Origin: Takakia lepidozioides
Taxonomy: Eukaryota; Plantae; Bryophyta
NCBI GenBank assembly: GCA_030704615.1
Contig: CM060733.1
Span: 5,828,001 to 5,892,000 of the forward strand
Length of the DNA stretch: 64,000 bases
Direction: 5' to 3'
The notes under the pieces were generated by a model. It searched no databases. It saw only the letters and a program-made list of their open reading frames with translations, and was not told the DNA's origin. Made by a program: the position numbers and the translations under genes. The stretch's first letter is position 1. Every line of letters starts with the position of its first letter. This document shows positions 5,944 to 55,941 of this stretch, one piece after another.

Positions 5944-7797
5944 CCTGCATGACTCACAACTCTTAGTCAAGAAGCCTTGTAACTCATACTAATATAACAT
6001 ATCTCAAAGCTCCTTTCTACTTCTGAGAATACGGTCTTCCTGAGGACAGATATATATTACCAGGGATACAAATCATCTACTTGAGTATCAACTGTCCAGT
6101 TGTATCTGTTTGAGTCGGAATTTTTATAACTATCAAAACAAAACCGATTGTACTCTTGGCCTGGTGCTCCATGGTGTACATCCACATTAGAACCCTCACC
6201 AGACTGTGCTTGACCTTGTATCATGGCATGTAGCTCTGCTTTCACCCAAGGAGGGTTCAACCAACCTCAACTCATTTGTGCGCTTGCTCCATAAGTCTGG
6301 TGATCTTGGAGTTCTCTGAAAACCAACAGTCACCAGCTAAGCAGCCATAGCTTCAACCTCAGCCTCCCATAGAACAGGCTACAACCACCATGTTTCAAAT
6401 AGCAAGGAACAACCTTAAAACCTACCCGTAGCAACAGTATGATCTGATTTTGCAGCCTATTCGCAGCCGAGAATAAAATTTACCTAATTGGAGATACAAA
6501 CCTCACACCAGATAGAGTCACAAGTCCTCCAGTTAGCCTCACTTATGAAATCTGAACAACTCCTGCTAGAGTAGTTCTTACTCACTGCTTAGCCTGCGTG
6601 CAAGAACTGCAAGAACCTTTCGATTCCTCTGCCCTTCGCTTCCTTCCATTATGACTGAATAGTTCAATAGACTCTACCATCCATACAAAGTGATGGATAA
6701 CGAAAAATAGGTTTCTTCAGTTGGGCAATAGGCCCTCTGCTGCATTTGCGAGTTCTTGGAAGGTGTATCGTCAAACTCATTTTCTGGGATCTGGGGGTCA
6801 ATTAGGGTTGCGAACAATCTGGGGGGGTCAATTAGGGCGAACAATCTGGGAGAAGTACTCTGAGGGGGCTCCTGCTACTCTATATGTGGTGGACTCTGCA
6901 AGCCAATCTCGATTTGAAGCCAATATAGGTTTTACCTTGATTTTACCACGTAGGAAAATATATTTTACCTCATACCCATATCTACTATGAAGTAAAACCT
7001 AGAAGAATTACCGTAAAAGGATTCGGGCAATCCTTCCTACCTTCCCTCCTTCAAGCACTTGACGGCTTCAAGCACTTGACGGCAGGTGATCAGAATCACC
7101 ACGTAGAGCCTACTTCTCACTTCCTCACAAATCACAATGAGGCCAACACCAAAACTCTGCAAAGTGCCTAACCGTCTATATCCTCAATCACTAGTAGCAT
7201 ATCTCAAACGATTTGGTGCCAGCTGAGAATGAAGACTTGATTGCAGAGGCAAACCTCTTTGAGGTAGAATGATTTGTCTTAGAGACAAATTATTGTTCAA
7301 CATATTATACTATACTCCTTTGATTGGAGTTTGTTTATTTGTCATTTTTTTTGAAAATTTCAGTGACATCCCGTGTACTTAGTTTGTTGTATGCTATATT
7401 GACAAAGCATCATCCAAAAAACACAAATTTATGTAGGTTTTTTTAGTTGTGCTTTTGCTGCACCATAAAAGGTAACCATAGAATTACACATGTTTAATTT
7501 GTTTTGTATTTTGAATTAAGATCCTTATGTAGTTAGTTAGTTTTAGTTGTTCTTTGCTACACCGTACGAAAACTTATAAAATCTCTGGTTTTCCGTTTTT
7601 AATGGAGACCATGCGTATTTAACTAGTTATATATACCATAAAAGACAATCACAAAAAACATATAAGTTTATTTACTTCTGATTTACTAATAAATTCCCTG
7701 GTTTTAGTTGAAAATTCTCAGTATCACCAATCAGATCAGTTCATCTAATTTTCCAGAAGAATAAAAAAATTAAAATAATTTAATATATTTTTAAAAA

Positions 7798-12658: not shown

Positions 12659-15657
12659 TCAAAAATTCTTGATGTTCAACCAGACCTCTGTGCCTGCCTC
12701 AAACTTAACTTCCCTCCACTTCCGATTCACCTGCCGTTCATACCGTTTCCTAGTTTTGGCAATGTTGTACTTTCCGAGCTCCAACAAACGCTCGCATTCT
12801 TCCAGCACTACTGCTGCTGCTGGTTCCTCAACGTTCTGGGCAGCCCAATTTGTCGGCACCAGAGGTGCTTTTCCATAGACCAATATGAAAGGGGAAACTC
12901 CCGTTGCGGAGTGTTTTGTGTTATTATAACAGAACTCTGCCGCATCCAAGTGCTCCACCTAGTCGGATTGGTCTGCCGACACATAATTCCGCAAGATCTG
13001 CTTCACCACGGAATTCACTCTTTCCGTTTGGCCGTCCGTCGTAGGTTGGAAGGCTATACTCATCTTGAGTCTCGTCCCCATCTTCTTCAAAGTGCCCTCC
13101 AAAATTTACTTGTAAACTTTGGATCGCGGTCCGAGACAATATCCTTTGGGAGTCCATGATGCTTGAAGACGTGGGCGAAGTAAAGTCGCTCTGTCTCCTG
13201 CGCCGTGGCCGTCTTCTTGGTGGGAATGAAATGGCCCATTATACTGAACCTATCCACCACCACCATGATTGCATCGAATTTTTTTGACAGCGGCATAGCA
13301 GTCATGAAATCCATTGAGACACTTTCCCAAGACCCCTCTGGAATCGGCAAGGGTTGTAACAGCCCTGCTTGCTTTTTGTTCTCGCTCCGGTTTTGTTGGC
13401 ATGTGGTGCATGTCTTGACATACTCCTCAGCCTCCTCCCTCAGTTTGGGCCAGAAATACTCGTTCTTCAAGAGTGTCGCGGTGCTCGTGACTCCGCTTTG
13501 GCCCGCAAGCGGGCCATCGTGGCATCTCTCAAGAGACTATCTCTGATCCCTCCCTTCGGCACATAGAGGTGCTTTTGCTTGTACCGGAGCAGTCCATTGT
13601 GCAAGTGAAATTGTGATTTAACTCTTATCCTCAAGTCCCGCATCACGGACTTCGCCATCTCATCCTTTCGGTAAGCCTTCCGAATCTTCCTTTGGAGCGT
13701 CGTCTCGCCCCTGTACACCAACATGAGCTGTTGTTTTCTACTTAAAGCATCGGCCACCACATTGTCCCGTCCCGGTTTGTACTGGATATCCACGTCTTGC
13801 CACCTAAGTTGTTTTGGGGACAACTTAGGCTGTGTGGCAAAATACTTCACCGTGACATTGTCCGTGAACACCTTCATCGGGTTTGAACCAACATAGTGGC
13901 GCCAAAGCTCAAGGCAATGCACCACCGCCTTCATTTCTTTCTCGTACGTAGGCCATCGTCGCTCCACTTCATTCAGTTTCTTACTTTCATAAGCCACTGG
14001 ACGTCCATCTTGCATGAGCACACCCCCAATTGTAAAGTCCGACGCATCTGTATGAATCTCAAATGGACGGTCGAACTCCGGGATTTTCAGGACTGGAGCT
14101 TCTGCCATCCGCTGCTTCAACTCGGCAAAAGGTTGGTCACAAAAGATGTTCCATACCCATACCTTGGATTTACATAGAAGGTCCGACAGCGGCCCCGCGA
14201 TCTTGGCGAAATTTCTCGCATACTTTCGGTAATAGGAGGCGAGTCCTAGGAAGGATCGCACCTCCGGGACCGAAGTCGGAGGCTTCCAGTCTAAGATCGC
14301 CCTCACCTTTCTGTCATCTATTTTGATCCCATCCTGCGTAATCACATGCCCTATGAACTCCACTTTTGTGACCCCGAATTTGCACTTTGAAGCTTTGGCA
14401 TACAACTTCATTTCCCGCAATTTCTGGAATACCCTTTTGAGGTGCTCCAGATGCTCTTCTTTTGTTTTCGAGTACACCAAGATGTCGTCGATGTACACGA
14501 TCACAACGTCAACCAACCTCTCCTGGAAAAGGCTGTTCATTAGCGTGCTAAAGGTCGCGGGTGCGTTGGTGAGCCCAAAAGGCATCACCAAGAACTTATA
14601 TGAACCATATCTTGTCCTGCACGCAGTCTTCTCCTCATCTCCTTCCGCCACTCGGATTTGATGGTAGCCGGAGCGCAAATCGATCCGGCTGAAATACTTT
14701 GCTCCTGCCAACCGATCGAAGAGGTCGTCGATCCTTGGCAAATGGTACCGGTTTTTGATAGTCACCTTATTCAGAGCCCTGTAATCGACATACATCCGCA
14801 ACGTCCCATCCTTCTTGTCTGCGAATAGCACCGGGGCTCCGTATGGTGACTTACTCGGCCGGATGTACCCCTTTGACATTAGATCCTTGAGCTGAGCCTT
14901 CAGCTCGACCAAACTCTCTGTGCTCAACCGGTAGGGCGCCTTGGCAGGCGGCTCCGATCCCGGTATCACCTCTATCTTGTGGTCAACTCCTCTTCGCGGT
15001 GGCAAGCCGCTTGGTAAATCCTCCGGTATCATATCTTGGTAATTCTCCAAGATCCCCTTGATCCAATCTGGGCTCGGCTCCATATCGACTTATCCTTCCA
15101 CTTGTCTTACGTAAAGCAAAAACTGAGGCTCGTGTGGCTCCTCCACGGCCCACTCCTTTGCTGACAGTAGGTTTATTCGCCCTCCCACTTGGTTGGGCGT
15201 TTCCGAAACCTGTAAAACTTCGCCACCATTCCCACACGATAGCATGACTATTCTCTTGTGGTCATTTATGACCGCTCCAGATTTGCTCAAAAATGTCATC
15301 CCAAAATGAGATCCACTCGATCTCGCAAATGGTGAAGTTCTCACGTCCCTCCCAACCCCCCAGCTGAAGAGGAATATTGAACGCCAACCTCGTCGTCAGT
15401 TGTGCTTTTCCTTTGGCAGAACGCACTTCAACAGAGGCCCCCACATCACTTGTCGGGAGCCCCAACTTCAGTGCCGTTGCCGGTGTCATGAAGGAGTGCG
15501 ACGCTTCTGTGTCCACCAACAACGACACGTTAGTTCCGGAAATTACCCCACTCGCGAACATTAACTGACTCTCTTTACGCAAGGCGTCAGTTTCCTTATA
15601 CAACTCACAAGAGTAGTTGCCTACCTTGCAAGTCTTGGCGACTACCGCCTCCACCAA
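12659..15657 (-). pseudogene. pol: pol (protease, RT, RNase H, integrase) of the chromovirus, frameshifted
   Basis: LLVDTEASHSF protease, YIDD RT, TDAS RNase H, HHCC and SMDFM...SDRDPKF integrase. Confidence 0.92.
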
Positions 15658-15659
15658 GC

Positions 15660-16836
15660 GGCTGATGGACTATTCGGACAACTCCGTGGTCGCCCGAGTC
15701 ATGTTCAATTGGGGTTTGGCACACTTCTTAGCCATTTGCCCGGGCTCCCCGCAATTAAAGCACACTCTATCAAAGGTCGCCTTCTATCCGCCATAAGCCG
15801 CCGCACCTGATTTTCCTTTCGGAGCACCGGGTGCCACCTTGACGTGTAAAGGTCCTCCCTTCAATTTCCATGTGTTATTGTTGCCGCGTGGCCTATCCCA
15901 CTTCTTTTCCGGTCGGAAAGAGTCACCCTCCCGCCGGGTCTTCTTGTGGTTTAGCTCTGTACGGCCTTGTCTTTCACCCCTAGGGACATCCGAGAAACAT
16001 TCAGCCCTTTCAATTGCCTTGTTCAAAGTCTTAGGTGGCTTCTCCTCCAACTTCCGTTTGGCCCATGGGGCCAGTCCCGCCACAAAGTTGAAGACCATTT
16101 CTGGTTTCGCCATATCAGCGACTTCGAGCAACCGCACATTGAAAGCCTGAACATATCCCCGAATGTCATCCGTTTGCTTCAAATTCCTCATCTTGTTCCG
16201 GGCGAGCCAGGACGCGTTGAGGGGCACAAATTGTCTTTTCATAAGTTCCTTGAACCCACTCCAGCTCAAGGTATCTAGGTTTGGACCTTGGTCATGAAGG
16301 TGTTTCTGCCACCATTGTTGAGCATAGCCCCTCAAATAGGTGGGAGCCACTTCCACCCAATCCTTGTCACTCAACTTGGCCACCCGGAAGTACTGCTCTA
16401 GCTCCAAGAGCCAGGTGTTGAGTGCCTTCCGATTTTGGACGCCCTCGAAGGTGTCGGGTTCCTTAGGCTTCACCTTAAACTTTGCCTTAGTGGAAGTGGC
16501 ATTAGCCGCCTTCAACACGTCTTTCAACGTCTCGCCAAACTGCGCCAACAGCCCTTCCCAAAAGGCTGCTGGCATGGGAGACATCTGTTGGTCTGGCGGA
16601 GCCTCCGGAAAGTCCTTGTGCTCCGACTCCAAAAATTCCTCCTGCTCTTGAGCGGCCTCGCTCTTAGAAGCATGAATCGCCTCCTCCAATTGTCGCTCCG
16701 GTGACACGTCGCCCCCACCAGGCTCATCAGAATCATCATCTTTCGGGCCGTTCCGCTTTTGCTTTGTCTTGCCCGACCCCATGATGAGGCCGATCTCAAG
16801 GACGATCGCGTATTGAACTCTAAGCTCTGATACCAA
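15660..16836 (-). pseudogene. gag: gag of the chromovirus
   Basis: Retrotrans-gag-like core (KPKEPDTFEG...WLLELEQYF...AQQWW). A degenerate zinc knuckle CFNCGEPGQMAKKC follows a premature stop at 15784. Confidence 0.85.
16824..16835 (-). promoter_or_regulatory. Primer-binding site, tRNA-iMet (TGGTATCAGAGC)
   Basis: Lies 2 nt from the LTR CA end. Confidence 0.9.
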
Positions 16837-17123
16837 GTGTCGCGCACCTCACTTCGGTAAGCTCCCCTTCAAGTCATAGTTACTCGCTTTGATGCGCGCG
16901 CCTAACTCCCAAACTGGCCGCTGGGCCAACTCGGAGCTTCGGCTGCTTACCGGGACATAATGGTCCCCCTTTGCTCCTCCACAAGACCCTCGCTCTATTT
17001 GAGCCTAGTGGAAATTTCCCTTTGGTTGTTGGCAGTCCGGAACAACTCCCCACACCTTGGTCGCTTTCCGGTTCGCATGCTTACTCACTAGTTTTTGGTA
17101 ACCAACGGGCTTGCACCGATCTT

Positions 17124-17623
17124 NNNNNNNNNNNNNNNNNNNNNNNNNNNNNNNNNNNNNNNNNNNNNNNNNNNNNNNNNNNNNNNNNNNNNNNNNNNNN
17201 NNNNNNNNNNNNNNNNNNNNNNNNNNNNNNNNNNNNNNNNNNNNNNNNNNNNNNNNNNNNNNNNNNNNNNNNNNNNNNNNNNNNNNNNNNNNNNNNNNNN
17301 NNNNNNNNNNNNNNNNNNNNNNNNNNNNNNNNNNNNNNNNNNNNNNNNNNNNNNNNNNNNNNNNNNNNNNNNNNNNNNNNNNNNNNNNNNNNNNNNNNNN
17401 NNNNNNNNNNNNNNNNNNNNNNNNNNNNNNNNNNNNNNNNNNNNNNNNNNNNNNNNNNNNNNNNNNNNNNNNNNNNNNNNNNNNNNNNNNNNNNNNNNNN
17501 NNNNNNNNNNNNNNNNNNNNNNNNNNNNNNNNNNNNNNNNNNNNNNNNNNNNNNNNNNNNNNNNNNNNNNNNNNNNNNNNNNNNNNNNNNNNNNNNNNNN
17601 NNNNNNNNNNNNNNNNNNNNNNN
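17124..17623. other. Assembly gap (500 N)
   Basis: Run of N. Confidence 1.
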
Positions 17624-19166: not shown

Positions 19167-19867
19167 ATCAGGATTAGATCTTGCTTGGGCGGGCTTCTAT
19201 TCTTCCCCTCCATCTCTGTACTATTTTCATTACCTTGTACTTGTAGTTGCCAAAGCCTCTCTTGGTGGAGGCCAGTCAGTCCGGGGTTTTGGGCTGGGAT
19301 ATTCTGCAGGATCAGCATTGCAGCTGGATTTTGGTGTGGGGGTGTTGATGTTTTGATTTCTTGTGTTTGGATCCCCCCCAACACCTGCATGCTTGACTGT
19401 GCGCCATGTTGGTTTTGTGTGGGCGCTTGCTTTCATAGGGATTAGGCCGGATTTGATCACCGGTCAATCCTAGAGTATGCTGTCGGTGGTGAGGCTGGAG
19501 TGATGACCAGCAAGACCACCAGTGTTTCTTCTATGGTGAGGCTGGGTTGATGACCAGCCAACCATAGGAGTTCTTGCGGTGGATGCAGGTGCAGGTGCCC
19601 TGAGCCATTGGGATATGACCCTTAGACTGCAACAGGTGCCCACCCGTGTCACTATTAGATTAGTACTAGAGCCTTATAGTGTCACGTGGAGGAGGTGCAC
19701 ATTGTGAGTGTCATTACGGAGTTACCCAAGGGTTTTGAGGGGAGTACGGCTACAAGCAGTGACAGTGAGAGTGGGTCACAAGACGAGGTATTCGGTTCAG
19801 ACCACCTTCACCGCCACCCTCAACTACTGTAGAGTCAGACACAGACTCGGAGGCTTCATCAACAGGT

Positions 19868-21703
19868 GTGCACTTTCATTCGCCATTGTTGTGGGACGAC
19901 ATGGAGGAGATGTATGGAGCTACCAAGGGGCCTCGTAGGTACTCTGGAGCTGTGGGCACAATCGAGTTGGATGACTTTATCCAGGAGTTCGACAGCTGGT
20001 GTGATTTGCAGCAGATGCGCAATCCACAGCTATTCACCCCATTCATGGCGTGGAAGGGACTGTTCCAGCATTTGGAAGGCCCGCCTATGGACGATTACCA
20101 CGAGTTCAGGCGAGGACATGAAGCAGAGATTGAGGAGTGGAGGATGTATTGGTCACCTGACTACGTCTCCATTACTCGAGGCACGACGCGACCAGTAGCT
20201 GCATCAGTACCAATAGCTTCCACTGCCAGCACTAGTAGTGGAGCAAGTAGTGCTGGTACTTCTGAAGGTGGTACCAGTTCAAAAGGTGCTACTACTTCTC
20301 CTGCCACGACTACAACACATTTGCCTAGATTCAACCCGGTGGTGGAGTTCTTCCAGGAGTTGCGGAGGAACTACCAAGGTGTACGGACAGAGAAGCTGCG
20401 AAGTTTGCAAGACTTCCAGCGCAAACCCAGTGAGAGCCTGCGAGAGGCGTACACTCGTATGAGGCGCTTGATAAGTGTGACCCAAGGGGTTACTGAAGCT
20501 CAGGCAATCCAGTTTTGGTATGGAATTCTGGACAAGGAGCTCAAGAGAAGGGTGCGAGATGCAACCCTGTTACAAGCAGCCCAACCCACATTAGCAGATG
20601 TGTTTCTGCTGGCTGAGCGGATTGAGCTCAACATGGTGGAGGAGCGAGTTGTTACAATTGGATTTGGCAAGGACATGCCTGTACGGGGCACAGCTGTCAG
20701 CCCACAAGCACAAGGGACTGCCCAACAGCGTGGTCAGGGGGGCAAGGTTGCCCAGCCCAAGTTCCATGGAGCTTACAGGGGACCTCAGGTGCAGAGGCCC
20801 GTGGCATCTTTTGCAGGCCAACAGCAACCAGGGGTGATATGTTGGACATGTGGAGGACCCCATGTCAAGAGAGATTGCCCAGAGAGTGGCAGAAGGCCGG
20901 CACAAGCACAGCCTGCACAGTTGCAGTGTGGGCATTGTGGCAAGTATGGGCATGGAGATGCCCAGTGTTATGACTTGCATCCTGAGTTGCGCCCAGGCCA
21001 GTTCCAAGGGAACAATGGTGGCCGGGGGCGAGGTGGACCAGCCCAAAGAGGACGAGGTGGTCGGGCACGAGGTGCAGGCCAAGGGCAAGCTCCACATGGC
21101 CAAGGACGCGGAGGTCAGGGTGTTGACCAAGGCATGGCCAATCGGCTTCAGCAGCTAGAGCAGAGGCTCGCTGCCATGGCTATAGCTCAGGCGGTACCGG
21201 CTCCCAGGCGGGATGGCCCACCTCCTGCTCCTGAGGGAGGAGATATGGGCGGAATGGGATTCATGTGCGGAGCAGCACTACCACTAGAGCAGGTGGAGTC
21301 TGCTGCAGCCGTGACTCGAGGAGCAGCACGAGTTCCTGAGCCACGAGGTGCAGAGGTGGAGTTGGATCCACAACGTGGGGAGGCAAGCCGTCAGGCAAGG
21401 CTGCCTCAGTCATTCACCTTGGCGGAGACAGTGTCAACGCCATCCATGGCACCTAGTTCTCGCCCGACTGTTACCGAGGCGGAGGTTACTATGCCATTGG
21501 GGAGAGCTACCCGTGCAGCACTGACACCTACTACCAAGGCTAGTGCAGCCGGTGTGTTATTGGGAGCAGCCACCTCTGTGTGTCAAGCCCCACTGTTCTC
21601 GGCAACCATGATTGCGACGCCGGGAGTGAGACCAGCTGCAGTGTTCAGACTAGCAGCAACACTCTGTGAGAGTGGGAGGTCACTTCATCTTCTGCGGAGT
21701 TAG
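19868..21703 (+). CDS. gag: Gag with two zinc knuckles and an RGG-rich segment
   Basis: QRKPSESLREAYTRM gag core; CWTCGGPHVKRDC and CGHCGKYGHGDAQC. Confidence 0.85.
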   Translation: MHFHSPLLWDDMEEMYGATKGPRRYSGAVGTIELDDFIQEFDSWCDLQQMRNPQLFTPFMAWKGLFQHLEGPPMDDYHEFRRGHEAEIEEWRMYWSPDYVSITRGTTRPVAASVPIASTASTSSGASSAGTSEGGTSSKGATTSPATTTTHLPRFNPVVEFFQELRRNYQGVRTEKLRSLQDFQRKPSESLREAYTRMRRLISVTQGVTEAQAIQFWYGILDKELKRRVRDATLLQAAQPTLADVFLLAERIELNMVEERVVTIGFGKDMPVRGTAVSPQAQGTAQQRGQGGKVAQPKFHGAYRGPQVQRPVASFAGQQQPGVICWTCGGPHVKRDCPESGRRPAQAQPAQLQCGHCGKYGHGDAQCYDLHPELRPGQFQGNNGGRGRGGPAQRGRGGRARGAGQGQAPHGQGRGGQGVDQGMANRLQQLEQRLAAMAIAQAVPAPRRDGPPPAPEGGDMGGMGFMCGAALPLEQVESAAAVTRGAARVPEPRGAEVELDPQRGEASRQARLPQSFTLAETVSTPSMAPSSRPTVTEAEVTMPLGRATRAALTPTTKASAAGVLLGAATSVCQAPLFSATMIATPGVRPAAVFRLAATLCESGRSLHLLRS

Positions 21704-22635
21704 TGGAAGGTGTAGTGGCAGAGGGATCCTCGGATTTGAGGGTCAAGACTGCCACGGCAGCGCCCTGGCAAGCTGCAGCTGCCAGGTTGACGGAGCTGCC
21801 AGCTAGGCCAGCCTTTGAGCGCGCCATGGTGACACCTGGAGTTGTCTTGTTAGACAACCAGGGAGGCATTTTCACTTTGAGTGGACCGGCAGGCAAGAAG
21901 TACCGGCCACTGCGGGTCTTGTTGGACTCAGGAGCTCAGCCACTGATGTTGGGCAGAGCTGCTATTGCAGGTTTGGGCCTCATGGAGGCGGATATGGAGC
22001 CTTGTCCTTTCCAGATACAGACATCTCTGGGAGGATCAGAGCAGGCTCGCGGCATGACACGGCATCAGTTGGCTATTAGACTGCAGCCGGATCATCCTGT
22101 AGATGGCTCAGTGATGCGAGCCAAGGCCATTGTGACAGACGCGGTCTCTTACGATGTCCTCGTTGGTGGGGCAGTGTTATACCCCATGGGCTTCACCCTG
22201 GATTTCTGGGAGGAGTCAGCATCCTACAGGCCTGGATGGCAGTCAGGGGATGGTCGCCGTGCACAGCTCCCTGTGACATTCATTGGGGGTATTGCAGCTG
22301 CTCAGCGGGGCAAGATGCCAACACTAGCCGCCTTCACAGCTGCAGTTAGCTGGCCTGGAGAGTTGCTGGAAGGCAATGCCCATGCAGAGGATGTGCCACC
22401 TCCAGCAGAGCAGGATGACATGCATGGTACGGCGGAGTTGCCTGCCATGGTTGCTCACACTCCGTTGTGGGGTACGAGCAAGGATTTGCAGCACGCTGCT
22501 GATGGACGGGTGCAACAAGCTTGGGTAGAAGCTTTTGTACCGTCAGGAGAGGAGGAGAGTGCGGTGATTGCACCAGGGCCACCTCAGTTGTCGCCATTGG
22601 ACACCACACCTCTTGTGTGGCAGCGACCGGATGAA
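21703..22635 (+). CDS. Retroviral-type aspartic protease and linker
   Basis: VLLDSGAQ active site and YDVLVGG C-terminal motif. Confidence 0.85.
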
Positions 22636-23600
22636 GGCATATGCCTTCTGGACTTATTTGGCGGGATCAGCACTGGATTGGCTGCAGTGCTGCAGGCAGG
22701 TGTACGAGTTCGACGTTACCTGTATGTGGAGAGGGATGAGACTGCACGACGCGTCTCACTGCGCCATGTTGCTCAGATGGTGCAGCAGCACCCTGAGTTG
22801 TTGCCGGTGTCTGCAGTTCGTGGATATCAGCAGGCCTTGCCAGCAGACATTGCGTTGCTGGGGGCGCAGGATTTGGAGCGGGTTGGCTCCATTGATCTGG
22901 TAGTGGCAGGTTGGCCCTGCCAAGGGCATTCATCAGCCGGGCATGGCAATGGATTGCGAGACTCGAGGACGGGTCTGTTTTGGGAGATGGTGCGGATTTT
23001 GCGCCACTTGCAGCTTCATCAGGCTGTATCTCCGGCATACATCTTGGAGAATGTGCCACTGATGGGTGATTCTCGGGCCAGGGTGATGGCCAGTGTGCAT
23101 CAAGTCCGGTCGTGGCTTGGGTCAGCAGTATTGCTGGATGCAGCTGCAGTGGGGTCACGGGCTCATCGTCCACGACTATGGTGGACTAACTTGATGCCAC
23201 CCGCACTGCTCAAGCGTGCATTTGATGGGGTGCAGCGGCCAGCACACCTCACCGTGGATGGCATTTTGGACACAGGAAGGCAGTCTCAACGTGTGAGACA
23301 CGATGACCGTTCGCCTTTGGCAGTGGTCAACAGGGTGGGTCAACCACGAGCAGCATTACCTACACTGCTCAGCTTCCCAGGATCCCATGCTTTTCGGGAT
23401 GGTGGACCTGGCCTCCTGTGGGATGCTCAGTTGCAGCAGTTAGTGGAGCCTAATGCCGACGAGCGAGAGCGGGCTATGGGGTTTTCCACTGGGACCACGG
23501 CGGTGCCTTCCTTTCTGAGGCATCACGTCGTCAGGTGTTGGGGCAAGCAATGGATCTCAATTGCTTGACCTGGATTGTCAGCTTGGCTATGGCTGAGCAA
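22636..23600 (+). CDS. C5 cytosine DNA methyltransferase domain (DNMT3-like) inside the polyprotein
   Basis: Motif I LLDLFGGISTG, II YVERDE, IV AGWPCQGHS (catalytic PC at 22915-22920), VI ILENV, VIII AHRPRLWW, IX ERERAMGF, X LGQAMD (after a 1-nt frameshift at ~23512). Confidence 0.92.
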
Positions 23601-23861
23601 CGTAGAGTGCGGAGTGCACTTCCCTTGATGGTCTCTCTGCCTACCGAGACGGTACAGGCAGCGAGTGGGGGCGAGCCGGTGAGGACCACGAGGTGTAGAC
23701 ATCCATGGCACATGTGGGAGGTGCTCGAGGTTCAGAGGGAGTTGGCAGCGAAGGCAGCTGTGATGGATGAGGAGGTTCTCAATGATGAGATGATGGGGCA
23801 GGATGAGGCCTTGTCATTGACTGAGCAGGAAGGGGGTACTGCTCAAGAGGTTGCAGCATAG

Positions 23862-26800
23862 CAACCACGGGACGCGTCCTCTACCTCTAAGCCCACTGGA
23901 CTTAAGGTTGCAGTTACGGAGGACAATTGGGAGCCTGATATTGGACCCATTGTCACCGGAGGAGAGAGACGACGTATACGGCGGTTCCTGAGGGCTTACA
24001 GGAATTGCTTTGCCTTCAGTTTGAAGGACTTGGGAGCACTGAAGGGTCAAGAGATCCGTATTGAGTTGGCCACTGACACGCCAATCTTTCGGAGACCCTA
24101 TAGATACAGTGACATGGAGAGGTCTTTGATTCAGATGAGGACTCAAGATCTCTGGGAGGCAGGTTTGGTGGAGCTCTCTGGTGGAGAGTATGCTTCAGCC
24201 ACAGTGATGCCAGCTAAGAAGGATGTCTATGGCAATTGGACGGAGAGACGTATGTGCGGTGATTACCGGCCTGTAAATCGTCAGACCAAGTCCGATAGGT
24301 ATGCCATGCCAACACCAGAGGAGATCTTTGATGCCATTGGGCATTCCAAGGTCTTTAGCACGTTGGATTTACGATCCGGATATCACCAGTTGCCGATCAA
24401 GGAGGCGGATAAGCAAAAGACGGCATTCTGGGGGATCAATGAGCACGGGAAGGATTGCCTATACCAGTGGCGGTTCTTACCATTTGGGCTTAAAAACGCT
24501 CCCGCTGAGTTTCAAAGAGTCATGGACAGGATTCTAGCAGGGGTGGAGTTTGCTCGGTGCTACATAGATGACATCATCATCTTTAGTGCTACGGTGGAGG
24601 AGCATGAGAGACACCTTCAGGGGGTATTTGAGCGCTTGAGGACGCACGGATTGAAGTTACATCCGGGCAAGTGCAAGTTTTTCCACAACCAGATTGAGTA
24701 TCTGGGTCACATGATATATCCTGGAGGATTGGGGGTACAGCAGACTAAGGTAGAGTCCATTGCACAGGTTCCACGCCCCACGGATGTGAGCCGAGTTCGA
24801 GCTTTCATGGGGTTAGCAAACTATTACAGACGGTTTGTTAAGGGATTTAGTGCCATTGCAAAGGCTCTAACCAAGCTGACCAAGGTGGACCAGGAGTGGC
24901 AGTGGGAAGATGAGCAAGAACAAGCTTTTCAAGAGCTCAAGGCGAGGTTGACCTCGGCGCCCATCTTGAGACGACCTATCAGGGGGCGTCTTTTCAGCTG
25001 CATACAGATTGGAGCATGCTGGGGCTTGGAGCGGTGCTCACACAGGTGGATGATGAGGGAAGAGAGTTCGTAGTGGCTTATGCTAGCCGCTCGAACAATG
25101 CTGCAGAGTCTAAGTATAGCTCATATGAGGGAGAATGCTTAGCTGCAGTGTGGGCCGTGGCACACTTCAGGTGCTATCTATACGGCAATCTCTTCACCCT
25201 TGTCACGGATCACCAACCACTCAAGTGGTTGATGGAGTCAGACAAGCTTACGGGGAAGCTTGCACGGTGGGCACTCATCCTTCAAGAGTATGACTTTCAG
25301 GTGGTGCATCGACCGGGTTTGGTCAATCGAAATGCAGATGGGTTGAGTCGCAATCCATGCACGAGCCAGCAGGATGACACTGGAGCTCGGTGGCATGGTG
25401 AGACGGACGAGGAGATGGTGCCCGGATGGCATGCATCTGCATTTCTGTGTATCTTGGCAGCGGAAGGCCAGGTTGGACCTACAACAGGGATGACTGTAGA
25501 TCAAGTGTCTGAGGACCCTGAGGCCAGCAATGAGCAGGGTGGCGCCAAAGATATACATGAGGATTCAGTTGTGTTGGACTACCTCCGCAGTGGAGACACG
25601 GCAGCCATTATGACTGCCAAGGAGAGGGATCGGATCCTACAACGAGCCAAGAGGTTCAGGTGGGAGGGGACACACCTGCTCCGAGTGTGGGAGGATGGTC
25701 GAGTGAGGATTGTGCCTCACCCAACACAGCGGGCACGGTTAGTGCGGCATGCCCATGAGGAGTTGGGGCATTTTGGGGTGCGACGCACTCATAGTCTACT
25801 ACAGGGGCAGTATTGGTGGCGTGGTATGCACACAGAGGTACAACACTTTGTGGCTAGGTGCATGGTGTGTGACAGGGTGCGTGCTTCATTCAACGCCCCT
25901 ACTCCACAATTGCACCCTCTTCCGATCATGGGATTGGGCTACAGGTGGAGTCTTGACTTCGCAGGGCCGTTGCCACTGACCATGCGCCACAACAAGTACG
26001 TGTTGGTGATGGTGGAGCACTTCTCCAAGTGGATTGAATTGGTTCCATTGCCTGATAAGGCTAGTGAGGGAGCTGCGTATGCATTCCTGGATTGTGTGCT
26101 TAGCCGATTCGGTGCTCCAGCTGAGGTACTCACGGACCAAGGGAGAGAGTTCTTGGGGGAGTTTCAGGCTTTGTGTGACAAGGCCTTGATAGACCACCGC
26201 ACCACTTCTCGGGATCATCCTGAAGCCGATGGCTTGGCAGAGAGAGTTGTTCAGACAGTAAAGAGGGGTTTGCGCAAGTATGGCTTGCAGAAGGGACACC
26301 TAGGAGATTGGGACCTTCAGTTACCCTGGTTAGCCATGGGCTACAGGTTCAGCAAGCAAGCATCACTTGCCTCCTTCTCACCATACTTTCTTCTCTTTGG
26401 CCGAGAGCCGGATTTGCCTACATCCATTCGCAGAGAAGCTGCTACAGTTCTTAACCTTGACGATCCGGACGTGTGGGCACGTGCATGTGAGCAGCGTGCA
26501 GAGTTGTTCAAGAGAGTCATGCCTATGGCTTTCGAGAACCTTGCCATTGCACAACACCGTGATACGTTGAGGTATGCTACCATACGTGGTGGGGGCTATC
26601 GTCCTGGGGTTCGGAGATTCAACCCTGGTGACTATGTCTATCTGCAGCAGACTGCTCCTACGACCCTGGATGTGACTGCAGGACGTGTTATTTTGAGGGT
26701 TCGAGAGGTCTTGCCCTCAGGCGTCTTGGTCTTGGAGGGTCGGGATGGCATCACTTGGAAGGACCATGTGCGTAATTGTGCGCCATGTCACCTTCCGAAT

Positions 26801-26995
26801 GTCGATGGCAGGATTGACCCAAACCTGGCAGTGGTATCTGCAGGTTTGAGGTGCATGTTGTGTGGGTCTGCTAAAGGGGCAGCCACCATGCTGGTATGTG
26901 ATCGGTGCTCTAGAGGTTGGCATATGGGATGCTTGACTCCACCTCTTGAGATGGTTCCGGATGGAGATTGGTTATGTCCACATTGCATTGGATAG
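23862..26995 (+). CDS. pol: RT-RNase H-integrase-PHD finger (one frameshift at ~24990)
   Basis: LPFGLKNAP and YIDD RT, TDWS RNase H, HHCC and D-D-E integrase (SLDFAG, TDQG, AERV), C-terminal C4HC3 PHD at 26852-26986. Confidence 0.95.
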
Positions 26996-27255
26996 TGGGA
27001 GTGGATACAACCATGGGAGGCTAACAAGAAACGCAAGGCCCAGCTACTAGGAGACCTTGAACACACGAGATCTTGGCTCAAGTTCATAGATTGCAAGACG
27101 GCGACTAACGATGGGGCTACTCTTGTACCCGGCCTCTTGGTTGATAGAGTTTGAGCTCGATAAAGACAGTGATAGAGGACTTAGTACGGCTGTGGCTATT
27201 ACATCTTGTAGCTATCTGGAGGTAGAGGGACCTATCCACCAGCTAGGGGGGCGAT

Positions 27256-27785
27256 TGTGCTAGACTACTTTATTGTGCATATATGTGTGGTGTGGTTTGG
27301 ACAGCGATGTAGTTGTGTAGCGATATGTATGCGCACGACAGCTGTCAAGTTAAATAAGCACAGTGTGAAAACAGCTAGAATAAAACTAGTTATTTGTATT
27401 TAACACTTGGATTTAGGTCAAGTGTTAAATCAGGTGTCAAGTTTAGTTTGACACCTGGTCTGTTTTATCTTCACGAGAGCGGCAGTCGCGCGGCTCATCT
27501 CTCTCGAGTTGAGCCTGCGCGACCGAGCTCCTGCATTCTTCAGATCTGAGTGTGCTTATGATGGGAGTGTAGGTTGTTGTGGGGTGGAGTCTCCATAGCT
27601 TGGGGTGCCCCTGGCTCGACTATTATCTTAAAGAGTGATGTTGAGGGATTGCATATTTCTTGTGTTGAGAGTGTGTGTCCTTATCTAGTTTGGTTATCAT
27701 TGTGCTAGACTACTTTATTGTGCATATATGTGTGGTGTGGTTTGGACAGCGATGTAGTTGTGTAGCGATATGTATGCGCACGACA
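27256..27785 (+). repeat. 3' terminus: two identical 85-bp TG...CA LTR-like repeats (27256-27340, 27701-27785) flanking a 360-bp hairpin-rich spacer
   Basis: Exact direct repeat. Its 3' ~50 bp match the copy-2 LTR at 46643-46830. Confidence 0.9.
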
Positions 27786-29427
27786 CATTACCTGTTGGGC
27801 AAGAAGTTTATGTTCTATGTGGATCACCAGGCTCTGATATACCTGGTAAATAAACCTCTGATAAGCGGAAGAATAGCAAGATGGTTGATAATCTTGCACG
27901 AGTTTGAGTTCGAGGTTGTTTACAAGCCTGGGAGACTGCATCTTGTGGCGGATCACTTGTCACGGTTATCAACAGGAGAACCAGCCATAGGAATAGATGA
28001 TCAATTACCAGATGCGAGTCTATTTGCAGTGGAGGTGCAGGGAAGTGCAGATGAATGGTTAGATTGGCAGTGGCCAATCAGATACTACCTTGCTCATGGT
28101 CAGTGCCCACCTAGTTATGGTAAGGAGCAGAGGAAGAGAATCGCTATCAAAGCTGTACCTTATACTATGGTAGGAAGCAGAATGTATAAGCTAGGACCTG
28201 ATGGAGTACTAAAACGATGCTTGTACCACCATGAAGTAAATAAAGTTTTGGAGGAAGTTCATAAAAGAGTGGCTGGAGGTCATTTTGGAGAAGAGACTAC
28301 CAGTAGGAAGATACTACATGCAGGTTACTGGTGGCCTACTTTGTTCAAAGATGTGCACAAGTATTGTCAGAGTTGTGATGAATGTCAGAGGCTGGGACCT
28401 TTGCAGAGATCTGGGAAAATGTCTTTGCATCCTACAATGCCTACGGAACCATTTCAGAAATGGGGACTAGACTTTGTTGGACCAATTAACCCACCAGCCA
28501 AGAATACACGGAACAGGTACATAATTACAGCCACTGATTATACTACGAAGTGGGTGGAAGCTAAAGCTTTGAGGGACAACACAGCCAAGTCCACAGCAAG
28601 GTTCATGTACGATAACATACTTACACGATTTGGCTGTCCCTTAGAATTTATCAGTGATCAAGGAAGGTCACTTCATGAATGAGACCATTGAGTTGTTGAC
28701 TAAAGAGTTCATGATTGTGCATAGAAAAAGTACAACATATTACCCACAGGGTAATGGGCAGGCAAAGGCTACCAACAAAATACTATGTACTATCTTGGCT
28801 AAGATAGTCAATGCAAACAGAACGGATTGGGATACAAAGCTGCTGACAGCTTTGTGGTCATACAGGACTTCATATAAAGTCACCACTAAGTATACACCAT
28901 TCCAATTAGTTTATGGTATGGAAGCCTTACTTCCAGTGGAATTCCTGTTACCTACCATGAGAACGGAGTGGGGAAAGAGAATGGAATTGCAAGATTCCAT
29001 TAAAGTCAGGAAACATGAATTATATCATGTGGAAGAAGTACGTGCTGATGCAGCTGATAATATGACCAGAATTCAGATGAAGAGAAAGGAACAGTTTGAT
29101 GAAGGCAAGTTAAAGACTTTTAAGACGGGGGATTTGGTTCTATGGTTGCAGAAGAAAGGAAAGATTAAAGCTTCTAAGCTTAAATCACCATGGAAAGGAC
29201 CTTATGTCATACAAAAGATGTATGATAACAACATCGCGATGTTACAAACCATTAACAAAGAAATGCTGGGAAGAGTCAATGCCAATAAGTTAAAGGGATA
29301 CAGGGGTATCCATGACAAACCCTTGCAGCATGACTTGCATGTTGAAATGCAAGAGCAATCGCGGGCTGCACCAGTGTTACCAACGGAGTATGGAGCACTT
29401 GTCGCTAGGCCAAGCATATATGACTAG
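27786..29427 (+). pseudogene. pol: RNase H C-terminus and integrase (frameshifted)
   Basis: YVDHQAL...RIARW; H...GGHF...CDEC; KWGLDFVGP, SDQG, W.GPY. Confidence 0.92.
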
Positions 29428-29439
29428 GGCGGGCAAAAC

Positions 29440-29655
29440 AAGCGTGACACAGCCTATCACAGCCCATCAAGGTGAAACACAGCCCATCACAGCCCATCAC
29501 GACGTGACACAGCCTATCACAGCCCAGCACGGCGCAACACAGCCTATCACAACCTACCACAGCGTGTCACAGCCTATCACAGCTTACCATAGTGCATCAC
29601 AGCCTATCACAGCGTACCACAGTATGACACAGCCTGTCACAGCTCAACACAGCCT
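29440..29655. repeat. 30-bp tandem repeat (ACACAGCCTATCACAGC... units)
   Basis: About 7 units, translating as QPITAxH repeats. Confidence 0.9.
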
Positions 29656-30128
29656 ACTAGGATTACACGATCCATAGAATCAGTGACAGGTGGGCGCACA
29701 ATAACTTCAGAAAATGGCTGACGGAAGAAAAGACGGAAACCAGTTTAAAAATAGACACGTGGAAGTCAGGGTGCGACACACAGCCGAGAAGGAAGTGCAA
29801 GAACAGGTGTCATAAAGAAAGAGGACAAGAACGGCCGTCAAAATGGATGAAAGGCGGGCCCATTAATGAATACGGAAAAAGGGGAACGGAACAAGCGGCA
29901 AGTACAGAAAAGCGAAATTCTTGCCACATGTGTGATCCTAGTGGACTATCCAGCAGGGAAAGTCCACTAAAGAAAATGAAATCTAAAATCAAGTCACAGT
30001 GGTTACAGCCAATAGAAAGCCAGAGAAATGATCAAGAAATTGGAGGGAAATTAAGCGCAAGAGGCGGCGTCGTTCTGAGTAACGGGCGTCTCGACAGGAC
30101 AGACCATCAATGCTATAGCTTGAAAACT

Positions 30129-33100
30129 ATGGAGGAACTAACAGACTATACGCTTGCAATACTACTCACGCAGTGGCATAGGGACGAAACAACAGAGCGG
30201 ATCTTTTCTCTTGAGCGATGCTTGCAAGCCCCACAGGCTTACAAGAAATTACCCATAGCTTTTTGTGGCAACCATATGTTTATGCTTTGTGCACTACAGG
30301 CATTTCTGCAGTTGTTACAGCCAAAATATTTCTGTGAGTCTAAAATGAAGAGAGTGAGAGGAATGGAGGAAATCAGGGTGAAGAGCACCACAATTCTGCA
30401 GAAACAAACGATTGCTACCCCACAGGCGATACAGATACTGAAGGAGCTGAGATTGCAGGATTGCAAAGCATAGATTGGACATTACACCATAGACAGTACA
30501 TGTTACAATTTTTGCAGAACTTTGAGCCAAGGACAGGAACAACAACGGTGAAGGGAGTTGAATTAGTGATTACTCCCCTATACCTCCAGCAATTGTTTCG
30601 ATTGCCAGCAGGTCAGGTGCATGTGGAGGAGCACAGGACAAGACTGCAAATAGGGGACTTATTCCAAGAAGGGAGTTTCTTTAAAACTCAGGGTTATGCT
30701 TGTACCAAGGCCGCGTACCCAGGGCTAAAGGAAGTAGGCCAGGTATTGAACGTTCTGATTGCCATGAAACAGAACCAACAGTATTTGAGCAGATCCTTCA
30801 CGGAGGAAATACTCAAAAGCCCTGAAAGGACAAGAGGTAGAATGGGCGGACATAATGTACAACGCACTGGTAGAGGAGATGAAAAGATTACAAGGTACTA
30901 CCGCAAAGTCTCCTATCATAGTATCTGGCCCAATCATTGCTCAAATAATTCTTGATTCTGGCATACTTGATGCGCAAGAAAGAAAGGAGATGGGAGTGTT
31001 TGAGCCAGAAACCACTACAATGGAAGAGCAAGGCTCTTCACACAGTGAGGGTGGACTAGCAAGGCAACCCAAGACTAAGAGGCAGAGACGGGGAAAGACT
31101 ATACTGGCGGATCCACTGGCTTCACGGATTCCGCATGATAATGTTTCCCAAGCTCATGTGCAGGAAGGGGCACAGCAGCACAGGGAACTGCTATTACTGG
31201 AAGCAGAACCTTCAGAGAGGGAGGAGGAAGTTACTTCAGTAACACAACCATCACAGCCAGCTGATCGGCTTGTCACAAGGTTACAAGTTGTCCATGCAGC
31301 TCAACCAGAAATAATTGATTTGGAAAGAGAAGGGTTAGATATTCCAACTACAGAACAGATAGTGGCAGAAATTGAGAAGGGGGACCTTCTCTATGAATAT
31401 TCTGGTCTGGTCAAGGAGACAGAGATTCCAGAGGTGCAACAGTTGCCCAAGGGAAATCCTGAGGTGCATATAATACACACACCTGTGTCGGAGGTACCAC
31501 AGGCAGAAGGTCATGGCACTGTAGCACCGGTGATAGATGAAGTGGTTCAGGAAGAAAATCCGGTGGGACAATGGCCTGAGTGGTTCGTGAGACATCACAC
31601 TGTTGAGGATCAGGAGGAACAGCAGCAACCTCACCATGATGACCCTCAACAGGCAATGCTGATGAGTTCCATAGGCATGACACTTAATTTGTTGGGGACT
31701 TATGTCAAATCCCATGTTCCAACTACCCAATTGACAGCCTTGAGAGAAGAACTCGGGAAGGAGTTTGAGGCTCGACTAGCCACTGAGTGTGCAAACAAGG
31801 TCGATGAAGAGGTCACTCTCAAAATGCAGCAGGACTTGGAAAACACAGAAGCGGCTTTGCAATTGGCCAAGGAACAATTGATTGAGACAGGCCTCGCGCA
31901 AGACCAATTGCACGAAGCACATAAGCAACAGCTATACCAAATGCAGGTGCAGCATGAAAGCAAGTTGCAAGAAGTGAATACATTACATACGGAGTTGCAG
32001 ACAGTGCATGACAGGATGGCCATACAATGTGCTACATTCACAACTATGCTTGACCAATCTACAAAAGAAATAAACAGTCAAGCGGAAAAATGTACGAAGG
32101 CAGAAGAAGAGAATGTTGAGCAAATGAAACTCATTGTCGATATGAAGAATACAATCTGTCGCAATGATGATACTTTCAAGCGATACAGGCAGGTTGAAGC
32201 TGATCAAGAGAAGCACATCGTGGAGTTGCAACAAACGCTCATGGCCAATAGAACTGAAATCACGGTCACTAACAAGGCTTGGAAGGAAGCTAATAATCTA
32301 CTTGCTGCCTATGCGAATTTGGTTGAACCTCATGCGAAGCGCATGGAGGCCTTACTACAGTAGTTAGAAGTGTACAAACTAAGAGAGGAGCACACTCTCA
32401 GGGAAACCACAAGCAACTTGGTGGATAACAGCCTTATGCAGGTCTGGTTAGCACAAGGGCTAGTGGAGGGCAAAGCACCACGAAAGCTCACCCAAAGCGA
32501 GATGAATGAGCTCAGACTGCAAGTGCAGAACATTGCCACAACTACTATAGACAATGTCTATAGTAGGATAGCAGAGTTACAGGAGGATGTAGACGGACTG
32601 CAGACTCAAGTGGAGGACCTCACTTCAAACATAGACAAAAGAGTCTATATCCCTCAGGAACAGCTAATGGCTTCTTATTTACAAGCCAGAACTTTGGCTT
32701 TTCAGTCTTCACAGGAGGTGCAGGAAATGCCAATGATACAAGAGCCAGTACCACCAACACCACAACAAGTCACTGTACCAGTAGCTGAACCTGTTGTTAC
32801 TACAACCACACCGCAGCCACCACAGCCTGAGGTATGGGGCAATGCTGCTTTTAACCCACCTAAAACTCCAGCTGCAAGGGAGTACAATAGGGCTATGATT
32901 ATGCCCTTCAACCAAATTCCCCTCATGTTGGATTTGGCTTGGAAAGAATTTAGTCCTCCGCAGTCATTCGCACATTACTACCAAATCATGCGCATTTGGC
33001 TGCCAGTGGCAACTAGGACTAAAGTTCTTCCGAACAATCGACCAATTGAGGATCATCACTTTGCACAGTACTGGCACGAGGCAGGTACCATGTTGAGGGA

Positions 33101-33206
33101 ATTAATTGCTTTCCAGGTTGTACATGGATTCATTTATACCAAGACCAAGGAGGTAGCAAGTATCGTCATGGGATGCGGGTTATACTACGCTGCTTGTTTT
33201 ATGTAG
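30129..33206 (+). pseudogene. Extra ~1000-aa ORF downstream of integrase (env-position ORF) with long coiled coil
   Basis: ORF pieces 29847-30473, 30461-30955, 30855-32363 and 32370-33206 joined by 2 frameshifts and one TAG. Motif MLQFLQNF...VKGVELVITP..LQQLFRLP resembles plant retrotransposon accessory proteins. Confidence 0.7.
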
Positions 33207-33214
33207 AGGGGGGT

Positions 33215-34124
33215 TACACAACACGTCACATCCAACACAGCCCGTCACAGTCGTCACAGCCGACACAGCCAACACAGCCCGTCACAGTCGTCACAGCCAA
33301 CACAGCCAACACAGCCCGTCACAGTTGTCACAGCCGACACAGCCAACACAGCCCGTCACAGCCGACACAGCCACACAGCCAGTCACAGCCCGACACAGCC
33401 AAACACAGTCGCACAGCCAATCACAGCCCGTCACAGTTTCACACAGCCAGTCACAGCTTGACACAGCTGTCACGATCATAGGGAACGGAGAGCAGGACAG
33501 GGAACGACTGTGGGGAACAACACCTTGCAAATGGAACATGTTAGTTCACGGACGACGGTTAGTGAGGGAAACGGTTAGAGCCACGGGTAGGAAGATAAAG
33601 GGAGAAGCAAGGACTGAGTAGGGGGCTTTTTGGGGAGAGGATTCTGGGAAGCACGTCAAGAGAGAGAGAGGATCGGGTGGAGAGTAAGAACGGAAGCAAA
33701 GATGGAGAGCACGGTGAAGGAGGAGAGATGATTAGTAGATGCTTGTTATATGAAAAACTGTAGTGATATTGTAGAGCAGATTAGAGACACAATGGCTTCG
33801 GCCTGATACCTGATAAATCATAATCTGATACTTATACGATACAACCACACTGTGTAGAGAGATCTGAGTGAAGTTGTGGAATGAATGGATGGGTTGATGG
33901 AATCCGATAAATTGATGAAGCAAACTGATACTTAATTATCAATGGTAAGGTAGCTAACATGAATGCCAAAAGGGAAACAAAGAGGAAACACCCCCATGAT
34001 ACACTAGCTGTAGGTCATGACTGATTGTTCTGCGCGGGCTGAGTACTTAGAGATTTCCAACTCTTCTATCTTGGAGTTTCCGCCTTGGATAGCGAAGGGA
34101 TGGGTGAGTAAAAGCCGCGCGACA
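33215..34124 (+). repeat. 3' LTR with (CACAGCC)-rich tandem array at 33227-33475
   Basis: Follows the PPT and ends in CA. Confidence 0.7.
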
Positions 34125-34480
34125 CAGTTCCAGCTTTGACAATGTCACGATGGACCTCTTTGCCCTTTACCCAGTCTCCAGGGCTGCCAGGTTTGCACAT
34201 GCATTGCAAACACGAATGAACGTGACCCGGTCAGGCTGCACCTCTTCTCAACATTTGCTCATATGTCTCCAATGCCCTCATCCCGCACACATGCTCGCCA
34301 TATCTTGCAAGATTCAGCGTGTTCCTTGAGACAACATCTTGTTCAGCCATGTTATCAAACTCTCCCTTCGCAACTTCATAGGTCTCCAAAGCCTCCATCC
34401 CACGTCCCTGCTGTGCATACCCTGCAAGCATCGCACTCCACGACACTACATCTCGGCAAAACAGGCTGAAATAGCTCGAA
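34125..34480 (-). pseudogene. PLS-PPR pseudogene fragment
   Basis: RDVVSWSAMLAGYAQQGRGMEALE..., with frameshifts. Confidence 0.85.
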
Positions 34481-35312
34481 GAAGAAGGTGCCCTCACCAC
34501 ATTGTCCTCTACCTTGTGTCATGACCCATTGCGGATTAGACTGACCATGAACCCAAGAAGACCTCTTGTGCGTGCTGCTTGTATCTCTAGTTAGGTAATG
34601 TGGGATTGGTTCGTAAGAACCACCACAGTGCAGCTGAGCGGGCAGAGATTAAAATATGGGTTGCTAAGACCAAGCTGATTCCCCCAAGAACCTTGTGATC
34701 ATCAGGATGAATACCAAATCATGGTACAAAGGGGAGCCAAGAGCCCACATTTGCACATAATGCGCCCTTGACGCCATAAACGCTTGCAACAACAGGACAT
34801 GGGCCTCGATTTGGTCTTCGTCCTTCTCGCATCACTTGCTCGTCTCTCTCTCAAGCCTCCATCCCTCTCCCAACACTTGGACAAATTCAGGCAAAGGACA
34901 AAGTTACTCTTCCACCCTTAGATCATTTTACATCCGACGATTAGAACAATCTCTACGAGCCACACAAGCCCTAAAATACATTAAAATATTCCACGTCATG
35001 AGCCATGTGGAGCACTTATAAAAATTCCATTTTTGAATAGGGTGTGCAATGAATGCCTAGTTGTTAAGAGTCGTTCTCTAGTGCTTAAAACCACTTGTAA
35101 TTGTTGTTTAAAAAAAAAAACAATTTACGTAATTGAATTAAATCGCCACGAATATTGTGCCGACTGCGGAGTCATTGATGTAACTTCTATCCGCCATTAG
35201 AAATGTGAATTTATCCGTTACGACTGTGCAGTAGTAACAAACATCTCAAAGTTGTTCCCTCAGTGGTTTTGGACATGCAGTCGATTCGGAAAAGACACGA
35301 ATGCTTCTAGTG
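34125..35312. repeat. 1.19-kb segmental duplicate (copy A) of 41964-43153: 5' part of PPR pseudogene, upstream region and CACTA-like end
   Basis: Near-identical to 41964-43153. Both end ...GAATGCTTCTAGTG (revcomp CACTAG). Confidence 0.92.
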
Positions 35313-35850: not shown

Positions 35851-36061
35851 CGCCTAAGGACTGGTATGTGGTCTTGAAGGCCGAATTTTGAAGCTCGTGG
35901 AGGGCGGTTTGAGGAGTATCTTCATGATATTCCCATGGTTGTGCAAGTGAGGGAAGAGAGGAGAGGAAGAGTGTTGGGATGAGGGCATGCTGGGGTTAGG
36001 CATTGCTTTAGCTTCTCTTCCTCATAGTTTCCACCCTCTCATTAGGCCAAGACCTTTCCGT

Positions 36062-49351: not shown

Positions 49352-49363
49352 TGGTATCAGAGC
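49352..49363 (+). promoter_or_regulatory. PBS tRNA-iMet TGGTATCAGAGC
   Basis: Canonical 12-mer. Confidence 0.92.
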
Positions 49364-55921: not shown

Positions 55922-55941
55922 AAAGGGAGACACACTACATA

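Follow-up and report, generated by a model that had tools for sequence, protein, structure and literature searches.

A decayed Ty3/Gypsy retrotransposon encoding a DNMT3-type methyltransferase in Takakia lepidozioides

The element and its methyltransferase domain

The stretch of Takakia lepidozioides DNA analysed here (64,000 nucleotides of contig CM060733.1, positions 5,828,001 to 5,892,000; hereafter the window, in whose own numbering all positions are given) contains a dead member of an old, high-copy Ty3/Gypsy retrotransposon family that encodes its own DNMT3-type C5 cytosine methyltransferase (DNMT). The list of open reading frames (ORFs) shows five coding pieces on the forward strand between 19769 and 26995, behind an internal leader (19249-19900). 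The Gag piece (19769-21703, likely start ATG at 19901) has two CCHC-type knuckles (20840-20878 and 20927-20968) and is 50% identical to the Marchantia protein P0004, and its match to Pfam Retrotrans_gag (E 0.0016) is below the cut-off. Here and below, P-numbers denote protein relatives and L-numbers the 80 metagenome DNA loci. The second ORF (21670-23568) holds an aspartic protease (21808-22290, with DSGA at 21925-21936; Asp_protease_2 is matched weakly in the relatives L018, L028 and P0220) and motifs I to IX of the methyltransferase, while motif X lies in a third piece (23454-23861) that ends at an in-frame TAG. ORF2 starts with the reverse transcriptase (RT; 23862-25073, YIDD at 24561, first Met at residue 85), and the last piece (24914-26995) encodes RNase H, an integrase with H2C2 and rve core, and a C-terminal PHD finger (26852-26992). 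Downstream of the DNMT, Pfam matches are to RVT_1, RT_RNaseH, Integrase_H2C2, rve and PHD. The order Gag-protease-RT-RNase H-integrase with a DDE integrase is that of Ty3/Gypsy; a chromovirus is excluded, as the integrase C-terminus has a PHD finger instead of a chromodomain.

The methyltransferase domain (22621-23615) lies between protease and RT, as a first-pass annotation had claimed from the letters of the window. PF00145 (DNA_methylase) matches the ORF at 21670-23568 with 49 bits (E 7.6e-13; curated cut-off 22), and there is no intron. The motifs, numbered by the C5-methyltransferase convention, run in canonical, unrearranged order: I (DLFGGI, 22651), II (YVERD, 22717), IV (GWPCQ, 22894-22932), VI (ENV, 23044), VIII (RAHRPR, 23155), IX (ERERAMG, 23449) and X (GQAM, 23541). 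The domain had been called complete and in frame with the protease, which is correct for motifs I to IX; motif X stands in another frame past a break near 23510. Nor is there a single polyprotein, since the frame also breaks near 21673 (between Gag and protease) and near 24990 (between RT and RNase H), and a conserved TAG (23859-23861) precedes the RT. The three frame breaks are decay, because other copies in host contigs lack them. Placed host contigs from sequencing run X1 (92,560) give depth in all 30 bins, the DNMT included; this depth indicates an abundant family but gives no copy number.

The domain belongs to the DNMT3 class. Compared with solved structures, the single window domain matches DNMT3A/B (1.5e-9), then DRM (2e-5), then bacterial enzymes (6e-4), and a 55-sequence family profile scores DNMT3A at 98 bits, DRM at 62 and 51, M.HhaI at 39 and DNMT2 at 24. 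A structure model of the domain from L018, an unbroken relative, has a predicted local distance difference test score of 96.7, and its top match is DNMT3A (E 1.2e-19, template-modelling scores 0.73/0.83). A DRM methyltransferase is rejected because the motif order is not rearranged (VI to X before I to V is absent) and DRM scores below DNMT3. A search of a viral collection returned distant methyltransferases only (30 loci, partial matches). The PHD finger is nearest to those of CHD4, PHF12, KDM5A/B (PHD1) and BHC80, several of which are readers of unmodified histone H3 lysine 4.

Relatives, selection and phylogeny

A first protein search, which left out proteins over 2000 residues, gave 70 matches, with Calypogeia and Marchantia at the top (72-75% identity) and Sphagnum, Closterium, Chromochloris and Monoraphidium after them; with an E limit of 1e-30, a wide search yielded 224 clusters. 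Two layouts are seen. The DNMT stands before the RT in streptophytes, where the host is named, whereas in chlorophytes it stands between RNase H and integrase, as in 81 of 108 new integrase-PHD matches. The catalytic C, E, R and R are all present in 46 of the 53 proteins with DNMT before RT and in 169 of the 179 chlorophyte-type proteins. Among the 80 loci, the conservation of motifs IV and IX is circular, because the loci were fetched by patterns for those motifs. Most of L041-L080 form a sister family with W-E-C-Q for P-C-Q in motif IV, the same split ends as described below and no stop before the RT. Two PHD-bearing Gypsy proteins, P0237 (Chlamydomonas reinhardtii CHLRE_09g398141v5) and P0256 (Haematococcus), carry a DNMT3-like domain that Pfam missed; it is degenerate in the former and intact-looking in the latter.

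Quick trees of chosen subsets (60 DNMT rows and 49 RT rows, with SH-aLRT branch support only, four viral methyltransferases as outgroup and no host DNMT3 or DRM included) group the window copy, at a support of 99, with elements of Marchantia and of the moss type for both domains. The two layouts fall largely apart, and the DNMT tree broadly mirrors the RT tree; the root is not established, because the RT outgroup fell within the DNMT-before-RT half. The ratio of nonsynonymous to synonymous substitution rates (dN/dS) for the DNMT has a median of 0.10 between the window and 21 moss-type loci, where the RT gives 0.06 and the protease 0.13 and dS is close to saturation; between L018 and L028 the DNMT value is 0.14. 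The DNMT has been under purifying selection between lineages, and the annotated domain is a real, long-conserved DNMT3-type domain of a land-plant Gypsy element.

The broken state of the window copy, and the dN/dS of 0.55 for the DNMT among close, decayed moss-type copies, could be taken to mean that a fragment of a host DRM or DNMT3 was captured recently and evolves neutrally. However, the RT is equally relaxed among the same copies (0.44), the motifs are unrearranged and intronless, the domain extends from chlorophytes to liverworts and mosses, between-lineage dN/dS is about 0.1, and the RT and DNMT trees broadly match. These findings refute recent capture, to which we assign next to no probability. 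The captured, spliced host DRM or DNMT3 fragment that the first-pass annotation had named as a possible outcome against it is rejected on these grounds.

The stop between methyltransferase and reverse transcriptase

The motif X piece and the RT share one frame, split by a TAG that closes ORF1 (Gag-protease-DNMT) and is followed by CAA CCA (23859-23867). An in-frame UAG followed by CAR-YYA is the Type I readthrough signal of tobacco mosaic virus (TMV), and in plant reporters such signals were read through at 11-32% (PMC2754532). The first-pass annotation had missed both this stop and the split-repeat ends described below. The TAG is not decay, because it is conserved in relatives. The DNMT end and the RT start occur together in 59 of the 80 metagenome loci. 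A stop followed by CARYY is found in 23 of 26 moss-type loci (the rest being one C-to-T version, one sense codon and one deletion) and in 3 of 5 loci of further lineages, the other two having the C-to-T version. Depending on lineage, the hexamer is CAACCA, CAACCC, CAGTTA or CAATCA. Perfect CARYYA is seen in the window, L018, L019 and L028, four lineages whose 45-nt flanks agree at 22-47%; following stop triplets in general, CARYY has a background frequency of 0.7% and CARYYA of 0.19%. L018 has frames of 1369 and 1047 codons, both unbroken, with nothing but TAG CAGTTA between them. There is no conserved restart of ORF2, because the first Met lies at residue 85, 117 or 14 in three lineages. Marchantia Gag-protease-DNMT proteins, available as protein sequences only, end about the same distance past motif X. 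In the first protein search, 16 of 17 protease-DNMT proteins end 36-163 residues past motif X, a count given no weight here because longer proteins had been left out of that search. No shared RNA structure is evident 3' of the stop. Host read variants from four runs include no variant row on the nine letters of stop and hexamer; this shows that family members in the host generally have the stop, but as a test of conservation it is weak.

These observations suggest that ribosomes quite probably read through the stop. Retroelements require Gag:Pol at about 20:1 (PMC2194720), and since the stop would set a ratio of this type, DNMT3 and protease would be made on the abundant side. As in TMV, murine leukemia virus (MuLV) gag-pol and SIRE1, an in-frame stop would set the ratio of upstream to downstream product (PMC2754532, PMC2194720). 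In the window family, unlike in TMV, MuLV and SIRE1, the stop follows protease and methyltransferase, which puts an enzyme on the abundant side. Several points speak against readthrough. The stop is dispensable family-wide, because P0220, P0086 and P0056 have no break between DNMT and RT and the sister family lacks the stop; in the same metagenomes, 0 of 28 sister-family loci have the stop and the DNMT reads straight into the RT. The moss-type hexamer CAACCC is one letter off the consensus and has an ATG after it, the in-frame stop of Tca2 is described as one that need not be passed by local readthrough, and the nine quiet letters in the host reads could be chance (about 0.3), because 19 of 151 places varied.

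RT-RNase H-integrase-PHD might instead be made from an RNA that is spliced or starts internally, with the CARYY context incidental. In the NCBI models P0049 (Sphagnum) and P0006 (Marchantia), DNMT and RT are joined and the linker is skipped, the moss-type loci have the ATG after the hexamer, and an internal promoter has been reported at the Tca2 junction. However, the join falls at a different point in each model, the CARYY context is kept where the flanks diverge, and the stop is in frame in every lineage that has it, with no conserved Met. We regard this alternative as improbable, and under it the DNMT would be in excess over the RT anyway. As public gene models, P0049 and P0006 bridge the stop site at different points and look like annotation artefacts that hide the signal.

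Element ends, proposed cycle and known systems

The 3' part of the element, on the forward strand, has a split-repeat structure. A polypurine-tract-like G run (27237-27253), at the same position in relatives, lies directly 5' of repeat B (27254-27340), which ends in CACGACA and is identical at 87 of 87 positions to B' (27699-27785), the 3' end of the element. Repeat A' (27343-27698, about 356 bp) stands between them; it is an internal copy of the 5' end by position, A being present at both sites in relatives. Within the window nothing further upstream matches A', and the 5' end of this copy is missing; a 500-base assembly gap (17124-17623) lies upstream of the element. The B-A junction, CACGACA-GC-TGTCAAG (27334-27349), is near-palindromic and is the predicted cutting site of the integrase. 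The complete layout A-body-polypurine tract-B-A'-B' is present in L027, L077, L047, L054 and L046. The termini of relatives read TGTCATG...CACGACA, and an exact 4-bp target duplication flanks 6 of the 8 relatives that have both ends, so that TG...CA ends with a duplication in the 4-6 bp range are found in relatives. L021 has a shorter A-body-polypurine tract-B form with its own 4-bp duplication. The junction occurs in 11 of the 80 loci plus the window, the spacer being GC or one change from GC in all; the L027 junction forms a perfect palindrome of 16 bp. Two full long terminal repeats (LTRs) with a tRNA primer site are not found: the repeats are split, and inspection showed no obvious primer site behind the 5' A.

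Two known types with unusual ends were rejected. Troyka has CG...CG ends, a 3-bp duplication and animal hosts, against TG...CA and 4 bp here; DIRS, PAT and Ngaro are excluded by the presence of rve and H2C2 and by the lack of a recombinase match. The A-coding-B-A-B layout is nevertheless like that of PAT, Ngaro and SymbioDIRS. Unlike the DIRS type, which uses a tyrosine recombinase, the window family has a DDE integrase, 4-bp duplications and one junction kept inside the integrated copy; DIRS-type elements are not known to make a target duplication. The palindromic junction with CA/TG ends is like the LTR-LTR palindromes of foamy viruses, whose integrase has been reported to cleave such a junction in circles (PMC1180852). 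Both integrated forms would follow from a true repeat unit B-A and a cut after CA on both strands of the junction in a one- or two-unit circle; such a cut would leave the same ends as normal integrase processing. We give this circular cDNA route to integration somewhat less than an even chance. It is weakened by the mirror product A-B-A-body-B, which a two-unit circle also predicts and which is not seen among the loci, and recombination between B and B' could give the short A-body-B form too.

A second copy in the window had been reported to carry the methyltransferase at the same position. This is borne out for the protease and the DNMT start (37107-38155, 88% identical), with a stop codon each in the linker and the DNMT part; the copy breaks off before motif IV. 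Its 5' part (36046-38155, forward strand) comprises the leader, a deleted Gag, the protease and the DNMT start, and its leader (36046-36399) is 84% identical to 19249-19597 of the first copy. It picks up again in the RT at 43154, and the DNMT-RT junction is missing; the 3' part (43154-46830, forward strand) runs from RT through RNase H, integrase, PHD and the purine tract to B, with no A' after B. A 1.2-kb duplication with pentatricopeptide repeat (PPR) fragments (34124-35312 and 41963-43153, 96%) has its second unit adjoining the RT part, and the copy is split by about 5 kb.

The first copy interrupts an unrelated Ty3 element within its RNase H region, and placed host contigs have loose ends at 27786. 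Besides RNase H and integrase, that element (27786-33600) has CACAGCC-type tandem arrays and, at 29661-33206, long additional ORFs; its 5' half was not found in the window. Another Ty3 element (47850-58148) has a Gag-protease ORF of 866 codons, and its 1.4-kb terminal repeats are 98.8% identical. On the reverse strand are a Ty3 element without methyltransferase (13087-16848), whose CpG observed/expected of 0.84 is above its neighbours, and a PLS-class PPR gene (3853-5988) with a 303-bp period and an apparent frame break near the C-terminal end. The PPR protein has lycophyte, gymnosperm, liverwort, moss and fern relatives at similar identity, mostly 41-57%. No tRNA genes were found in the window.

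Taken as a whole, we consider it fairly probable that the window holds a dead copy of an element with a Gag-protease-DNMT3 ORF1 closed by a leaky UAG, with methylation of its cDNA and with circle-derived ends. Ribosomes would mostly make Gag-protease-DNMT3 and would sometimes continue through the leaky UAG into RT-RNase H-integrase-PHD. The methyltransferase would enter the particle at Gag-like copy number and be cut free by the protease. It may then methylate the element's own cDNA, most likely at CG and perhaps on the circular intermediate, before integration, and new copies would land already methylated. The PHD finger may steer the integrase on chromatin, and the integrase would cut one- or two-unit circular cDNA at the palindromic CA-GC-TG inside the B-A unit, giving the split ends and the 4-bp duplications.

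The step on cDNA is an even bet. Counting against this account, CpG depletion gives no sign of it, the window copy being at an observed/expected of 0.51 and the three other Ty3 stretches of the window at 0.33-0.84. KnitGypsy-Dnmt3, a related element of Klebsormidium nitens, gave no methylation in yeast, a result its authors call inconclusive (PMC5890265). Moreover, catalytic motifs are lost in some chlorophyte members, and the locus counts overstate independence, because the 80 loci are 67 clusters at 98%, mostly of two families. An active DNMT3 might instead act after integration or in trans, on host chromatin, other elements or its own promoter, and damp the activity of the element. Synthesis at Gag level would supply far more enzyme than one cDNA needs, self-restraint is raised as an option in PMC5890265, and the CpG content lacks a footprint of self-methylation. 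The fusion to Gag and protease, however, favours packaging, and the chlorophyte domain sits between RNase H and integrase, among cDNA-handling enzymes; we think action after integration or in trans unlikely. A DNA- or RNA-binding module, with methylation secondary, would fit P0237 of C. reinhardtii and P0232 of Pleodorina, which keep a recognisable domain without the catalytic motifs, and would fit the negative yeast result. That explanation seems very unlikely given how widely the catalytic residues are retained in both layouts.

The closest known element is KnitGypsy-Dnmt3 (de Mendoza et al. 2018, PMC5890265). Both have Ty3/Gypsy domains, an intronless and unrearranged DNMT3 under purifying selection, and the DIRS-like repeat structure noted for the Klebsormidium element. 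No Klebsormidium-named sequence is among the named protein matches, and direct orthology to that element is putative. KnitGypsy-Dnmt3 has its DNMT in the Pol ORF, a feature found in the sister family, P0220 and P0086; in the window family, unlike there, Gag, protease and DNMT share a frame that ends at a conserved leaky-type stop, and the host is a land plant. The PHD finger, the 4-bp duplications and the palindromic junction are not mentioned for KnitGypsy-Dnmt3 in the available text of PMC5890265.

Among chlorophytes, the integrase-PHD arrangement has precedents, and REM1 is reportedly a PHD-bearing Gypsy element of Chlamydomonas. PHD-bearing Chlamydomonas elements such as Gypsy-7a_cRei (PMC9940879) share it and are nearest by integrase (45-50% identity), and the available text of PMC9940879 has no mention of their DNMT3-like domain between RNase H and integrase. 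Text on the Phygy and Selgy non-chromovirus clades (PMC6317226) does not mention PHD, a methyltransferase or Marchantia. A 2019 review states that land plants such as tracheophytes lack transposon-encoded methylases (PMC6338049). A 2026 preprint (10.64898/2026.05.21.726589) calls the KnitGypsy-Dnmt3 type 'Gypsy-DNMT3' of streptophytes, and in the available parts it and a 2025 paper say 'streptophytes' only. The literature covered, to which subscription papers, Repbase, theses, figures and preprint supplements did not belong, describes neither the land-plant family nor its stop or junction. Gypsy-DNMT3 in Klebsormidium is already known; the conserved stop with its readthrough context, and the split ends with palindromic junction and 4-bp duplications, are new.

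A wider picture can be drawn, which we hold to be doubtful: a class of green-lineage retroelements, alive across early land plants, that would carry DNMT3 as a particle part at structural level, pre-methylate its cDNA and have a DDE integrase open a circle at a palindromic att site. Members in Marchantia, Calypogeia and Sphagnum sit under 'hypothetical protein' labels, and counts of DNMT genes in bryophytes and green algae include transposon copies, which calls for caution. Two predictions follow: one on the stoichiometry of the enzyme, from the conserved stop, and one on a route through circles for a DDE integrase, from the junction and the target duplications. The question of what a retrotransposon DNMT does becomes testable, because Marchantia is a genetic model.

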